A stretch of 62,459 bases of DNA, filler included, from Acidimicrobiia bacterium (GTDB lineage: Bacteria > Actinomycetota > Acidimicrobiia > Spongiisociales > CAZKJJ01), in NCBI GenBank assembly GCA_046759765.1. It is 30 parts of 30 records of this genome, joined end to end, with 100 filler letters (N's around TTAATTAATTAA, not from the genome) between each part and the next. Parts side by side here need not be neighbours in the genome. Positions count along the whole stretch, not along the records: positions 44,717 to 46,616 come from JBHICV010000293.1; 29 more parts are not named here. One strand, written 5' to 3'. The notes beneath the pieces were generated by a model, which was given only the letters and a program-made list of their open reading frames with translations, was not told the origin of the DNA and ran no database searches. This document shows positions 4,827-46,716 of this stretch, in pieces. The translations under genes and the position numbers were made by a program. Position 1 is the first letter of the stretch. Each line of letters begins with the position of its first letter.

Positions 4827-4884
4827 GTGGATGTCACCCTCAGAGAAACTCGCCGAAACGTTGCAATGACCCCCTGAGACCGCC
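4827..4884 (+). mobile_element. IS30-family right end (transposase C-terminus plus IR)
   Basis: WMSPSEKLAETLQ* followed by GTTGCAATGACCCCCTGAGACCGCC; matches the IS30 end at 44717-44863. Confidence 0.7.
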
Positions 4885-4899
4885 GCACATATGCGCTAC
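4885..4899 (+). repeat. dif-like repeat, right half (interrupted by IS30)
   Basis: GCAC-ATATGCGCTAC directly after the IS end. Confidence 0.85.
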
Positions 4900-6908: not shown

Positions 6909-6936
6909 ACCGCCCATATCGGCACATATGCGCTAC
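6909..6936 (+). repeat. dif-like 28-bp site (11-6-11)
   Basis: ACCGCCCATAT-CGGCAC-ATATGCGCTAC. Confidence 0.9.
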
Positions 6937-6954: not shown

Positions 6955-6984
6955 GCCGCCCATATTGAATCTCTTATGTCAAGG
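6955..6984 (+). repeat. Hybrid site: repeat left arm plus XerD-like arm
   Basis: GCCGCCCATAT-TGAATCTC-TTATGTCAAGG. Confidence 0.6.
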
Positions 6985-7274
6985 TGCCGGCGGGTATGGT
7001 GGACAGGACTGGGATGGGCCACACCTTCTGGTGGGCAGGCTCTTATTAGGTNNNNNNNNNNNNNNNNNNNNNNNNNNNNNNNNNNNNNNNNNNNNTTAAT
7101 TAATTAANNNNNNNNNNNNNNNNNNNNNNNNNNNNNNNNNNNNNNNNNNNNTGGTCCGCATCAAGATGCCGTTAAAAGTTGAAAGGGCGCACGCTTTCCT
7201 ATGGCAAATCTCGGCCTGATGGAACCAGGAAGAAGAACACGGCAAGCCGTGTCATCGCGCAACAGGGGACGCCG

Positions 7275-32164: not shown

Positions 32165-32192
32165 GTAGCGCATATGTGCCGATATGGGCGGG
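32165..32192 (-). repeat. dif-like 28-bp site
   Basis: + strand GTAGCGCATAT-GTGCCG-ATATGGGCGGG. Confidence 0.9.
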
Positions 32193-32710: not shown

Positions 32711-32738
32711 ATAACACATATGTGCCGATATGGGCGGG
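32711..32738 (-). repeat. dif-like 28-bp site
   Basis: ATAACACATAT-GTGCCG-ATATGGGCGGG. Confidence 0.88.
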
Positions 32739-33226: not shown

Positions 33227-33254
33227 GTAGCGCATATGTGCCGATATGGGCGGT
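33227..33254 (-). repeat. dif-like 28-bp site
   Basis: GTAGCGCATAT-GTGCCG-ATATGGGCGGT. Confidence 0.9.
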
Positions 33255-33776: not shown

Positions 33777-33804
33777 CTAGCGCATATGTGCCGATATGGG
33801 CGGC
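33777..33804 (-). repeat. dif-like 28-bp site
   Basis: CTAGCGCATAT-GTGCCG-ATATGGGCGGC. Confidence 0.9.
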
Positions 33805-43367: not shown

Positions 43368-44561
43368 ATCACCGCTCGTGATTATGCGACACGTCGCGTC
43401 GAGCGTCGAGTGGCGGCGGGGGCAGGGTTCGCCCGTCGCCGGAGGAACGCCCGGACGCGCGGCATCAGCTTGGCCATCGTGGGACAGGTGTGGTTCCGAG
43501 TGACCTGGGCATGGAGGTCCTGCCACAGCCGTTCGATCCGGTTTTCGTTCGGGCAGTACGGCGGGAGGAAGTGGAGCACGACTCGACCGTTCAACCCGGC
43601 CACGACCGCCTGGGTGATCTTGCTGCTGTGGATGCCGAAGTTATCGACGATGACGTGAATGACCTTGGCGTTCGGGTAGGCCCTGCGCAGTTCATGGAGC
43701 AGGCCGATGAAGAGCATGCTGTTCTTCTTCTCGCCTTCGAACCATGTCAGTCGCTTTGTCGTCGCATCCATCGCTCCCGCGAGGTAGCGCTTTTCGTTCT
43801 TGCCAGGGGTGACGACCTCCTTCTGCTGACCCGGCACCATCCAGTCGTTGCCAATCTTGGGATTCAGGTGGATGTCCACTTCGTCGGCATAGACGGCAAC
43901 CTCACGAGGTCCCAGGCTCTGCAGAAGTCGGTCGATCATGCGCAACCGCTTGGCTTTGGCCTGTTTGGACCAGGGGCATCGAACCACCGGACGGGGACGG
44001 CCACGTCTGGCGCCAATCTTCTTGAGGGCTCGACTCATGGTCGAGAGGCTCACCACGATGCCCGTCTTTCGCGCCATCACCATCACCAGGAGCTCACGCG
44101 TCCAGGTCGGTCGCGTGTACTCGAACGACTCGGGCGTGGCCCGCACCACCTCGTAGAGCTGGCCGAGGTAGTCGTCGTCGATCTTGAGTTCGCCGTTGTC
44201 CTCCCGGCGATCCAGCAGGCCAGCCACGCCGAGGTCTCGGAACCGCTCCGCGACGCGGTACACGGTGGTCCGGTTCACATCGAGGGTACGGGCCACTTCG
44301 CTGACCGGCTGCCCTTGGAGGAGGTTCAAGATGATCAGGCCGCGGCGGCTGAGTCTCGCGTCCTTGCGCTGGCGGACAAACCGGCCCAATTCTCGCTGGA
44401 TGCGCTGCTTGGCGGCGAACCGAAAGTTCGGTACAATCCCGTCCATGGGAACTCCCTTCTCGGGCATCCTGCCCGGGTAGATAGGCTTTGGAGTTCCCTT
44501 TTTACAGCGCGGACCCGAATCAAAAAAGGGCCCAGGCGCTGCATAATCAAAAACGGTGATT
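43367..44561 (-). mobile_element. Complete IS630-family element
   Basis: 21-bp IRs AATCACCG.4.TGATTATGC (17/21 match), TA duplicated on both sides. Confidence 0.92.
43382..44467 (-). CDS. IS630 transposase
   Basis: HTH, YADE, VDNFGIH, LPPYCPNENRIERLW. Confidence 0.95.
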   Translation of the reverse strand: MPEKGVPMDGIVPNFRFAAKQRIQRELGRFVRQRKDARLSRRGLIILNLLQGQPVSEVARTLDVNRTTVYRVAERFRDLGVAGLLDRREDNGELKIDDDYLGQLYEVVRATPESFEYTRPTWTRELLVMVMARKTGIVVSLSTMSRALKKIGARRGRPRPVVRCPWSKQAKAKRLRMIDRLLQSLGPREVAVYADEVDIHLNPKIGNDWMVPGQQKEVVTPGKNEKRYLAGAMDATTKRLTWFEGEKKNSMLFIGLLHELRRAYPNAKVIHVIVDNFGIHSSKITQAVVAGLNGRVVLHFLPPYCPNENRIERLWQDLHAQVTRNHTCPTMAKLMPRVRAFLRRRANPAPAATRRSTRRVA

Positions 44562-44716: not shown

Positions 44717-44863
44717 CCCAAAGGCACCGACATGTCCAAGCTCACCCAAGAAGACCTCGACGCTGCAGCCCACTCCCTCAACGGACGGCCTAGACAAACG
44801 CTCGGATGGAAGACACCATCAGACAAACTCGCCGAAACGTTGCAATGACCACCTGACTCCGCA
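44717..44863 (+). mobile_element. IS30-family right end
   Basis: PKGTDMS..LNGRPRQTLGWKTPSDKLAETLQ* then IR GTTGCAATGACCACCTGACTCCGCA. Confidence 0.88.
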
Positions 44864-44878
44864 GCACATATGCGCTAG
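44864..44878 (+). repeat. dif-like repeat, right half (interrupted by IS30)
   Basis: GCAC-ATATGCGCTAG. Confidence 0.85.
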
Positions 44879-44896
44879 AGAGACACAGCCGGGGAA

Positions 44897-44924
44897 GTCA
44901 CCGATATTGCCGGTTATACGCTGG
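44897..44924 (+). repeat. Degenerate partner dif-like site
   Basis: GTCACCGATAT-TGCCGG-TTATACGCTGG. Confidence 0.5.
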
Positions 44925-45021
44925 CTCGATTACGCGATTCGGTACGGGTGCGCTGACCAGTGAACGCGGCAGCCTCCGGGGATCTGCAATGCTTTGCTGT
45001 CGCTAAGGGTTGTATCAGCCG

Positions 45022-45939
45022 ATGACGACGTCGCAACAAACACGCCGAATCCTCACTACCTCCGAAGGCATTAACCGCGGCGCGTTCTCGGCATTGGATT
45101 GGGCCCTGTTTGTTTCGATCTCCCTGATCTGGGGATCGTCGTTCCTGCTTATGGCGATCGGACTGGAGGCGTTCGAACCGGGCCTGATCACGCTGCTTCG
45201 TGTCGGCCTTGGGGCCGGCGCCCTTTGGTTGGTTCCTAAGGCACGCGCCACGCGCGTCGAGCGTGCCGACTGGCCTCGTCTCACCGCGCTCTCATTCCTC
45301 TGGGTGGCGATTCCGTTCACGCTTTTCCCCATCGCCCAGCAGTACATCAACTCTGCGGTTACCGGGATGCTCAACGGGGCGATGCCGATCTTCGCCGCTG
45401 TCGTGGCAGTGATCCTGCTGCGGCGCCTGCCTCGGAGGGTGACAGTCGCCGGTCTCGTGGTCGGTTTGGCAGGTGTCGTCGCGATCAGTGCCCCGTCCAT
45501 CGGACAAGGCAGCTCGGAGGCGCTAGGCGTCGCCCTGGTGGTACTCGCCACCGCCTGTTACGGACTCGCTGTGAATATCGCCGCGCCGATCCAGCAGCGA
45601 TACTCCTCAATCCCCGTGATGGCGAGGATGCTCGCCCTGGCGACGGTATGGACGACACCGCTTGGGGTCCTAGCTGTGGCGGAAAGCTCGTTTGCCTGGG
45701 TACCGTTTGTAGCGGTAGCAGCCGCTGGTGTGCTCGGTACCGGCGTCGCCTTCGTAATCATGGGGAGTCTCGTCGGCCGGGTCGGCTCGACCCGAGCATC
45801 GTTCATCACATACGCCATACCGGTGGTTGCGCTCGCACTCGGTGTCTGGTTCAGAGGGGACGAGGTGGCCCCGATCGCCGTGGCAGGCGTGGTGATGGTG
45901 GTCGTCGGAGCGGTCCTGGCGTCCCGGCGGGAGACCTGA
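45022..45939 (+). CDS. EamA/DMT transporter
   Basis: IWGSSF, about 10 TM helices, ASFITY.IP.VA..LG. Confidence 0.92.
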   Translation: MTTSQQTRRILTTSEGINRGAFSALDWALFVSISLIWGSSFLLMAIGLEAFEPGLITLLRVGLGAGALWLVPKARATRVERADWPRLTALSFLWVAIPFTLFPIAQQYINSAVTGMLNGAMPIFAAVVAVILLRRLPRRVTVAGLVVGLAGVVAISAPSIGQGSSEALGVALVVLATACYGLAVNIAAPIQQRYSSIPVMARMLALATVWTTPLGVLAVAESSFAWVPFVAVAAAGVLGTGVAFVIMGSLVGRVGSTRASFITYAIPVVALALGVWFRGDEVAPIAVAGVVMVVVGAVLASRRET

Positions 45940-46010
45940 TCGAGGTTGCGCGAGGCGCGGTGACTATCCCCCTTCCGACGTTTTCGATTTCGCTGCGTGC
46001 TTTACACCAA

Positions 46011-46038
46011 CCCGCCCATATCGGCATATATGCGCTAT
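46011..46038 (+). repeat. dif-like 28-bp site
   Basis: CCCGCCCATAT-CGGCAT-ATATGCGCTAT. Confidence 0.9.
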
Positions 46039-46055
46039 CCCACTACCGGCGGTTG

Positions 46056-46083
46056 GCCACCCATATCGGCAGATATGGTTCGG
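46056..46083 (+). repeat. Degenerate partner dif-like site
   Basis: GCCACCCATAT-CGGCAG-ATATGGTTCGG. Confidence 0.75.
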
Positions 46084-46182
46084 TCACCCGACACACGGAG
46101 CCAACGCACAAAGTCTCAGTCTGCGGTCCTGTCCCCTGTGGGAGTACGGTTGAGCTGGGGACAGCCTCTCAGGGGTGGAGCA

Positions 46183-46416
46183 GTGATCGAAGCTTACGTT
46201 CTGATCCAGGTCGAGCTGTCGAAACCGGCACACGTAGCCGCCGCGGTTAGCCGTATCCCCGGCGTTGGCACCGCCGCTGTCGTCATGAGCCCCTACGACG
46301 TGATTGTGCGCGTAGAGGCCGCAGATGTCCATTCTCTCGGGAAGCTCGTAGTTGCCAAAATCCAGGCCGTCGAGGGAGTCACCCGCACCCTGACGTGCCC
46401 CATCGTCCATCTCTAA
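46183..46416 (+). CDS. Stand-alone Lrp/AsnC ligand-binding domain protein
   Basis: AYVLIQ..PYDVIV..IQAVEGVTRTLTCP. Confidence 0.9.
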   Translation: MIEAYVLIQVELSKPAHVAAAVSRIPGVGTAAVVMSPYDVIVRVEAADVHSLGKLVVAKIQAVEGVTRTLTCPIVHL

Positions 46417-46550
46417 GCGGCTTACCCCCCCTCGCAGAAAGACGGCCCGCAGGCAGTCCACCACCGTCCACAACAGCCGAAGCATGCGATCAGATCGTTC
46501 CTATGTCGTTACGAGACCTGCCCGTGCGACGTGATTCTGAATCGGTAACA

Positions 46551-46580
46551 CCCGCGCAGATCGCAGCACATATGCGCTAC
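46551..46580 (+). repeat. dif-like site with 8-nt spacer
   Basis: CCCGCGCAGAT-CGCAGCAC-ATATGCGCTAC. Confidence 0.75.
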
Positions 46581-46716
46581 CTGGATCAGGAGACTGACAA
46601 ACGGGTTCTGAGTCCTNNNNNNNNNNNNNNNNNNNNNNNNNNNNNNNNNNNNNNNNNNNNTTAATTAATTAANNNNNNNNNNNNNNNNNNNNNNNNNNNN
46701 NNNNNNNNNNNNNNNN

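Follow-up and report, generated by a model that had tools for sequence, protein, structure and literature searches.

Putative mobile gene cassettes bounded by dif-like, Xer-type sites in chromosomal arrays of an order of Acidimicrobiia

The DNA considered here, referred to as the window, is a stretch of 62,459 nucleotides from the genome of an Acidimicrobiia bacterium (GenBank assembly GCA_046759765.1), a fragmented metagenome-assembled genome (MAG) of 2,726,369 bases in 308 contigs with 63% G+C that is 92% complete. It consists of 30 short contigs (1.6-2.3 kb) from several loci, joined through runs of N and TTAATTAATTAA spacers. Our subject is one of these contigs, C293 (window positions 44717-46616, 1900 bases), and the short palindromic site that recurs on it around two genes. 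The contig carries, in this order, the end of an insertion sequence (IS) that probably belongs to the IS30 family, a half site, a second site, a gene for an EamA-family transporter, a full site, again a second site, a gene for a protein with an AsnC-type domain and a degenerate site (Table 1). A preliminary description had listed seven elements, from the half site onward, and all of them are present in the order and at the places given. In the following, G000 stands for the source genome, other G numbers for relatives and L numbers for other loci from MAGs or metagenomes.

The full site, termed A site in the following, has the consensus CCGCCCATAT-CGGCAC-ATATGCGCTAC, that is, two arms of 11 bases around a centre of 6 bases, with the arms forming an inverted repeat; it is an imperfect palindrome and lies between genes. 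The 11-mer CATATGCGCTA (at most one mismatch) occurs nine times in the window against 0.28 expected, a count attained by none of 100 shuffled sequences, and the 16-base core CATATCGGCACATATG (at most two mismatches) occurs 31 times in the genome and not once in the reversed sequence. A search with a 27-mer (at most six mismatches) returned 33 copies on 18 contigs, always on a single strand within a contig, and the sites of a contig all faced one way in 8 out of 8 cases in this genome; the same held for 42 of the 46 other loci with at least two sites. All site-bearing contigs are shorter than 10 kb except C21 (24.9 kb), which has a consensus site at its extreme end; the 20 largest contigs contain no consensus site, and C8 has just one match with seven mismatches. 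The centre CGGCAC is invariant across all lineages seen, whereas the arms vary between lineages. When W was allowed at two places, the core was found in 4 of the 41 genomes of the order that formed our set of relatives (18 copies in G000, nine in G024, six in G014 and one in G003) and in 5 of 151 genomes sampled from the class, all five within the order; the 114 sampled genomes from other orders and the controls gave none. Viral contigs contained no match to a 19-mer of the site, and the exact 19-mer is present in more than 141 stretches among the public MAG matches listed.

Evidence for exchange at these sites comes from comparisons between contigs. Among 425 unique A sites, pairs from different contigs shared only the upstream flank in 16 cases, only the downstream flank in 12 and both flanks in five, and the outer arm bases went with their own flank in 12 of the 16 upstream-sharing and in six of the 12 downstream-sharing pairs. 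For 13 such pairs in a first set, similarity stopped 0-9 bases beyond the 16-base core. One site, in L147, is a hybrid: up to and including its left arm it agrees with L054, and from its right arm onward with L118. Breaks inside the core combined with hybrid arms argue for site-specific exchange, and we consider it probable that the cassettes are exchanged by site-specific recombination at a core site of the tyrosine-recombinase type. None of 569 contigs had a terminal overlap of at least 25 bases as expected of a circular cassette, and a survey of 457 sites revealed no case of a cassette precisely gained or lost with one site left behind.

The intervals from one site to the next measured 130-3554 bases with a median of 822 bases (104 intervals in other loci), and 76 of the 104 held one predicted open reading frame (ORF). 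Relative to the site, cargo pointed in the same direction in 69 and in the opposite direction in 44 cases in these intervals, and in six and four cases, respectively, in 12 intervals of the source genome, where, as in the other loci, directions and counts rest on crude ORF calls. The suggestion made earlier that cargo orientation is free is thus borne out. In the larger loci the cargo includes hydrolases, reductases, SnoaL-like proteins, a sulfatase, an ArsR-type regulator, an adenylate cyclase and many ORFs without a family; on the 32 kb contig of the window, none of ten ORFs attained a Pfam cut-off. At the nucleotide level, the 18 site contigs of this genome shared only IS pieces and site-adjacent stretches with about 230 other loci, and the cassette pool is very diverse.

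Table 1. Coordinates of sites, genes and insertion sequence ends in the window (positions count along the whole window).
Feature	Position	Strand	Remarks
Probable IS30-family transposase gene, 3' end	44717..44848	+	gene cut by contig start; stop TGA 44846-44848
Probable IS30-family element, right end	44849..44866	+	junction to site inside GCAGCA, 44861-44866
A-type site, right half	44864..44878	+	GCACATATGCGCTAG = GCAC-ATATGCGCTAG
B-type site	44897..44924	+	GTCACCGATAT-TGCCGG-TTATACGCTGG; centre inverted relative to A
EamA-family transporter gene, cargo of cassette 1	45010..45939	+	start TTG 45010 or ATG 45022
A-type site	46011..46038	+	CCCGCCCATAT-CGGCAT-ATATGCGCTAT
Second site, degenerate	46056..46083	+	GCCACCCATAT-CGGCAG-ATATGGTTCGG; A-type centre, A polarity
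AsnC_trans_reg-domain gene, 77 residues, cargo of cassette 2	46183..46416	+	PF01037, E 4.5e-11
Degenerate A-type site	46551..46580	+	CCCGCGCAGAT-CGCAGCAC-ATATGCGCTAC; 8-base centre
IS30-family end, then right half of site	4827..4898	+	another contig of the window
A site, consensus	6910..6936	+	27-mer search
A site, consensus	32165..32191	-	32 kb array
A site, 3 mismatches	32711..32737	-	27-mer search
A site, consensus	33227..33253	-	27-mer search
A site, 1 mismatch	33777..33803	-	27-mer search
A-type site truncated by contig end	36171..36192	+	window scan

The product of the EamA gene on C293 matches Pfam PF00892 (E 2.8e-27) in two stretches, and both EamA repeats are present. Homologues occur in 37 of the 41 genomes of the order, a count that includes G004, which is flagged as unpublished; the best ones are 68-71% identical and come from another family of the order, whereas the single relative from the same family has a copy with just 51% identity, which suggests capture of the gene and its transfer between families. 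The second gene had been described as Lrp/AsnC. The match to PF01037 covers residues 6-74 of the 77-residue protein and confirms the ligand-binding domain, and a Pfam search of the protein gave no helix-turn-helix match; as the ligand-binding domain stands alone, the protein falls outside the two-domain definition of an Lrp/AsnC transcription regulator. A second copy of this cassette with 87% nucleotide identity (C217:3178-3426) lies behind a different ORF of 519 residues, and a core paralogue with 65% identity is located on C1. At the seven best EamA loci in relatives, neither an AsnC-domain gene nor a site was found within 1.5 kb. The pairing of the two genes is not conserved, and the synteny in site-less relatives that would have spoken against the cassette view was not encountered.

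In relatives with good assemblies, the arrays lie on the chromosome, at four loci in G024, each adjoining a tRNA gene, and at three in G014; they sit within contigs of 2.09 Mb (G024) and 2.32 Mb (G014), near core genes and tRNA genes, and the cassette genes have a lower third-position G+C content than the surrounding core genes. The site-bearing loci L031-L095 include bins titled Gammaproteobacteria, Kiloniellales and Gemmatimonadales. A spread of the sites across phyla, as these titles would have it, was rejected because the labels are unreliable: for the one long 'Kiloniellales' contig examined (119 kb), the encoded transketolase has 58-67% identity with those of genomes of our order and 32-54% with those of other orders, which places the contig within the order and renders the labels or the binning of such records doubtful. 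We therefore make no claim beyond the order. One of the loci, L092, is syntenic with contig C54 of the source genome. In C117 (minus strand, near 7121), C240:1949, L056, L088 and L134 we also observed a conserved stretch of about 90 bases with the perfect palindrome GGGCGATATCGCCC; it ends with CGGCAC-ATATCGAGCGG, in L056, L088 and L134 immediately before A sites, and may represent the end of a further element or a third type of arm.

The site at 44897 belongs to a second class, termed B, which has the same kinds of arm as A and the centre TGCCGG, approximately the reverse complement of CGGCAC, and is therefore of inverted polarity. The preliminary description had all sites in direct orientation, which is correct for the arms of this site but not for its centre. 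In other loci, a B site follows A at a distance of 33-46 nucleotides in 58 of 217 junctions, in 37 of them at exactly 45 nucleotides, while in the source genome A is followed by B in 2 of 31 cases and the B count is noisy (14 versus 7 in the control). Together, A and B make up an inverted repeat whose single strand folds well in some loci (z -4.4, -2.1 and -1.3); at the two junctions of the window itself, with z values of -0.7 and -1.0, folding does not surpass that of shuffled sequence. Exchange was seen at B sites also, including one B without a preceding A.

Insertion sequences of two families are associated with the site centres. Right ends of IS30-family elements abut ATATGCGC or ATATGGGC at window positions 44864 and 4884 and, in inverted orientation, at C96:9227. 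The half site at 44864 comprises only the right half because the contig starts within a probable IS30-family element, the right end of which is inserted in the centre of the site. As to the family of this fragment, C293:1-81 matches NF033563 over 27 positions with a score of 23 bits (E 4.3e-4), where the cut-off is 80, and a 74%-identical copy on C257 reaches 106.8 bits, above this cut-off; no complete IS30-family copy was found in the loci. At some sites (C97:6928, C97:8671 and window 46562-46569) the centre is 2-3 bases longer, as in CGGCAGCAC with its duplicated GCA, a pattern that would be expected of a 3-base target duplication by an IS30-family element. The last site of the contig, 46551, had been taken for a plain site. 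It is present, but with two arm changes and a centre of 8 bases (six mismatches to the consensus in an ungapped alignment) it is degenerate or scarred, and the 8-base centre looks like the scar of an IS insertion. B sites are interrupted by an IS110-family element in this genome and in other loci, as judged from a Pfam match on L067 and from shared ends; near the end of C274 (window ~6957-7051) and in C259:501-755, a B-type site is broken after CCGCCCATATTG by an IS110-family end. The same end stands behind sites of four or more further loci (L073, L140, L044 and L181), which indicates that a second IS family specializes on the sites. The transposase of L035, initially considered as IS30, belongs to the IS3 family. 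On the contig preceding C293, an ORF of 361 residues (window 43382-44467, minus strand) resembles a transposase with an N-terminal helix-turn-helix.

Variation around C293 was visible in assembled contigs of four sequencing runs (X1-X4) from one hydrothermal-vent study. All four contain the stretch and probably represent the samples from which this genome came, and hence do not constitute independent evidence. Parts of the stretch without contig cover in X3 and X4 were not taken as evidence. In the bin containing site 46011, summed contig depth amounted to 325, 343, 52 and 378 in the four runs compared with 5-9 in the cassette bodies, and contigs parted from the reference precisely at 44861-44877, 46005-46006, 46040, 46563 and 46581. 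One contig from X2 has an intact, IS-free allele of the first junction, one from X1 lacks 46038-46081, and in other run contigs an IS30-like end stands immediately before GCAGCACATATG at site 46551.

The likeness of the sites to dif refers to a presumed dif of the order. The 24-mer TTGACATAA-CGTGGA-TTATGGGCG (at most three mismatches) is present in 33 of the 41 genomes (31 of 39 without G004 and G015, both flagged as unpublished) and absent from the backwards control; 32 genomes have a single copy and one more has two copies on two small contigs. Its variants follow the pattern TT(G/T)ACATAA-CG(T/A/G)GGA-TTATGGGCG in G002, G003, G013, G014 and 29 others. We take the 24-mer to be the chromosomal dif of the order; it was not found in the G000 assembly or in G024. 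A sequence at C21:22593-22611 was considered as chromosomal dif and rejected, as it is not conserved in single copy in relatives; it is a variant cassette site with the centre GTGCCG. In 24 sites of the source genome, the left arm agrees with the GGGCG-side arm of dif, presumably the XerC side, at a mean of 7.9 of 11 positions (range 6-9; 8-9 in 20 of the 24), while the right arm agrees at 6.4 of 11 positions with the inverted copy of this same arm and at 4.4 with the other dif arm. The inner bases are mostly ATAT-centre-ATAT in this genome and in G024, and ATAA and TTAT in G014 and G156. For some of the G014 sites, with their ATAA...TTAT, the right arm shares 8-9 of 11 positions with the other dif arm. 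The 6-base centre CGGCAC is unlike that of dif, and in G014 dif is located at 1.59 Mb and the arrays at 0.11, 0.52 and 1.49 Mb.

Which recombinase genes accompany the sites? XerD-like and XerC-like genes are present in the source genome. An integron integrase (TIGR02249) was not detected in any of four site-bearing genomes (G000, G024, G014 and G003), the best score being 72 bits where the cut-off demands 265. Of the five tyrosine-recombinase matches in G024, two are Xer-like genes, one is a small gene on a different contig, one is weak and one is a remnant; none of them adjoins an array. The small protein (193 residues) was rejected as the cassette enzyme since orthologues with 60-62% identity occur in the site-less genomes G005, G006, G016, G026 and G033; none was found in G000, G014 and G003. 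Recombinase genes were seen in 2 of 115 metagenome loci. One of the loci, L222, encodes an Xer-like recombinase of 304 residues (L222:2309-3223, high in G+C) and may represent either a chimeric contig or a cassette that contains a recombinase gene. Beyond its site lies a second, unrelated recombinase gene (539-1321), and ORF translations on that side look lower in G+C by appearance. Contig C96 (8500-9286; L012:1303-2041) contains in succession tRNA-Thr, an integrase remnant of 195 residues that comprises the catalytic domain only, a site-like sequence and a left half site with an inverted IS30-family end. Its site-like sequence overlaps the conserved RY codons of the integrase, and recombination may have occurred at a pseudo-site inside the integrase gene; C54 begins at the same point of a related integrase as the C96 junction. 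Further integrase remnants lie near arrays in L024 and L172, and L224 has a full integrase gene 2.5 kb from its array. No recombinase is consistently linked to the arrays.

Judged from the sequence, C293 may well be a fragment of an array of mobile cassettes that are bounded by dif-like sites of the Xer type and moved most likely by host XerC, with or without XerD, a reading in which our belief and our doubt are about equal. With regard to the enzyme, host XerC/XerD would be the most economical choice, and we would give it an even chance. The left arm of the site copies the presumed XerC-side arm of dif, and the right arm repeats this arm less faithfully and in inverted form. The recombinase, probably host XerC alone or together with XerD, would be supplied in trans, pair two sites that share an overlap and exchange strands inside it; between directly repeated sites the cassette would be excised as a circle with one site, and this circle could re-enter at any other site in the same genome or in another genome of the order. 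Recombination of the cassettes with dif itself is not expected, since dif has another overlap. The B sites with the overlap TGCCGG, which bound many cassettes on the other side, would form a second compatibility class that perhaps serves inversion or exchange through cointegrates. More tentatively, the arrays can be viewed as an integron-like, integrase-less form of gene capture within one order of Acidimicrobiia, in which palindromic sites made of two XerC-type half sites with the overlap CGGCAC would allow the cell's own dimer resolvase to move single-gene cassettes between tRNA-side arrays, with exchange between families and with IS30 and IS110 elements specialized on the centres; the cassettes would be exchangeable between families because the dif arms of the order are conserved. 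In a report on Acinetobacter, Xer is described as excising DNA between directly repeated sites with an identical central region (PMC11705084).

Several observations weigh against host Xer as the mover of such cassettes. The same report found no deletion between two direct Acinetobacter sites of the same centre and names ATAA-centre-TTAT as decisive for binding and cutting by XerC/XerD (PMC11705084), whereas in this genome the inner bases are mostly ATAT...ATAT and the right arm is unlike the second, presumably XerD-side, arm of dif (mean 4.4 of 11). The preliminary description had placed the arrays closer to pdif modules than to integrons, and the dif-like sites, the class of sites with inverted centre next to many cassettes and the four genomes without an integron integrase agree with it; the likeness to pdif is limited, as most junctions are direct repeats with one identical centre and in this respect integron-like. 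XerCD and dif are general in the order and the sites patchy (4/41; 5/151), so that host Xer alone fails to explain which genomes carry arrays. The arrays also adjoin tRNA genes and phage-type integrase genes or their remnants (C96, L024, L172 and L224), and the 304-residue Xer-like gene of L222 ends 9 bases from a site. These last points, together with integrase genes or remnants at 0-6 kb from arrays in the contigs just named and in G014 near 1.49 Mb and the incompleteness of G000 (just 92%), favour a dedicated tyrosine recombinase that would act on the same cassettes while being unlinked to most arrays, be it the phage-type integrase of a tRNA-side island from which each array would have been seeded or a Xer-like paralogue on a mobile element. 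We regard such an enzyme as a possible but less probable explanation: XerC/XerD are the sole recombinase families common to the site-bearing genomes, G024 has only the five matches described, one of them a remnant, the orthologues of its small recombinase are distributed over five site-less genomes and were not found in G000, G014 and G003, the array-side integrases are either truncated or share just 39-41% identity with one another and are inconstant in their orientation to the arrays, and 113 of the 115 metagenome loci are devoid of a recombinase gene.

Movement of cassettes by a tyrosine recombinase, whichever it is, has to be set against explanations that dispense with it. The sites are imperfect palindromes located between genes, insertion of IS elements into repetitive extragenic palindromic (REP)-type sequences is known from other bacteria, and neither circles nor precise gain or loss of cassettes were found; all this would suit REP-like or regulatory palindromes, such as binding sites or terminators, whose mosaic flanks had arisen through homologous recombination or spread of the palindrome. 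Such an origin is improbable, since the sites are confined to islands of low third-position G+C instead of being spread over the chromosome, are uniformly oriented within arrays and keep an invariant 6-base centre while their arms vary between lineages, and since breakpoints fall within the 16-base core and create hybrid arms, a core of this length being too short for efficient homologous recombination; the junctions of the window, moreover, fold no better than their shuffled versions. Even less likely is that the IS30-family transposase itself moves the cassettes and that the sites are merely its preferred targets. IS30 is known for palindromic hot spots, and the three IS30-family ends at site halves mentioned above (window 44864 and 4884; C96:9227) would agree with this, but most sites have no IS nearby, the one IS30-like piece found in G024 (without an open frame of at least 200 residues) lies apart from the four array loci of this genome, the IS end does not resemble the site arms, an intact IS-free allele of the same junction exists, and the variants in which the three bases GCA are duplicated agree with an ordinary insertion of an IS. 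That the arrays are artefacts of assembly or binning, created by chimeric joins at a short repeat, we find hardly credible: the short site contigs of this genome (all but C21 below 10 kb) and the unreliable labels of other bins might raise such a suspicion, yet arrays reside inside the 2.09 Mb and 2.32 Mb contigs of G024 and G014, and many records have contig names with k141, presumably a final k-mer of 141 and thus far above the 27-base site.

If the Xer-type interpretation is true, sites of this kind can support large chromosomal cassette arrays in environmental bacteria of a distant phylum, with ordinary accessory enzymes, transporters and small regulators as cargo instead of resistance genes. 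Direct repeats with one shared overlap would make excision mechanistically simple, which bears on the question of how Xer-site modules move, and the poor assembly of these genomes at such islands would be explained. The exact 26-base site, for which the matches listed comprise more than 128 metagenome contigs of several projects, would also serve as a probe with which cassettes can be collected from metagenomes.

The gene-cassette systems known so far are chiefly integrons and the Xer-site modules on plasmids of Acinetobacter. Actinomycetota are not known to have integrons, and our literature search found no paper on arrays of the present type in Acidimicrobiia or Actinomycetota. Integrons and clusters of attC sites lacking integron integrases (CALIN) form long direct arrays of short, mostly single-gene cassettes with diverse accessory functions, each ended by a recombination site. 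The arrays described here are likewise direct, draw mostly single genes with diverse accessory functions from a diverse pool, end each cassette with a site and are accompanied by IS elements that specialize on the sites. attC sites span 60-140 bases and are defined by structure, with conserved core and inverse-core motifs, and almost all cassette genes of integrons face the same way relative to the site. Our site, in contrast, is a conserved double-strand core of 27-28 bases, the junctions lack the attC core motifs, neither an attI nor a common promoter was recognized, the direction of the cargo is not fixed, and IntI is missing, with none of the four genomes passing TIGR02249. As neither IntI nor attC-type sites are present, the arrays are not integrons. 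A further comparison is with integrative mobile elements exploiting Xer (IMEX; 10.1101/2021.09.09.459576). These elements, such as CTX, TLC and the gonococcal island, integrate at dif through host XerCD. Mobile DNA with a dif-like site, the lack of an own recombinase and the capacity for tandem pile-up are shared with them, whereas the cassettes lie away from dif, as in G014, and have a centre unlike that of dif. With the XerCD-site-targeting insertion sequences of the IS1202 group (10.1101/2022.12.17.520857), the arrays share IS elements that repeatedly abut Xer-type sites; here these elements belong to the IS30 and IS110 families and are located in the site centre.

The pdif/xrs modules of Acinetobacter plasmids come nearest (PMC11705084; PMC6449649; PMC12907356; PMC7399989). 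Accessory genes in these modules are flanked by dif-like sites of 28 bases with an 11-6-11 arrangement, as in our arrays; both systems are without a recombinase gene of their own, both have cargo that points either way, modules between sites of opposite polarity (here B on the left and A on the right) may be a further common trait, in both recombination is expected only between closely related central regions, and in both insertion sequences target the sites. Pairs of sites in Acinetobacter are mostly inverted or differ in their centre, and exchange has been proposed to proceed via plasmid cointegrates (PMC11705084). Set against the pdif modules, the sites here are mostly direct repeats with the one centre CGGCAC around mostly single-gene units (130-3554 bases, median 822), both arms in this genome resemble the presumed XerC-side arm of dif and no arm of the XerD type was seen, its inner bases are mostly ATAT instead of ATAA/TTAT, and dependence on Xer is putative. 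The modules of Acinetobacter are borne by plasmids with several sites, while the arrays of Acidimicrobiia are chromosomal and lie beside tRNA genes. The best reading, in our view, is that of Xer-type cassettes closest to the Acinetobacter pdif/xrs modules but placed in chromosomal, tRNA-side, integron-like direct arrays.

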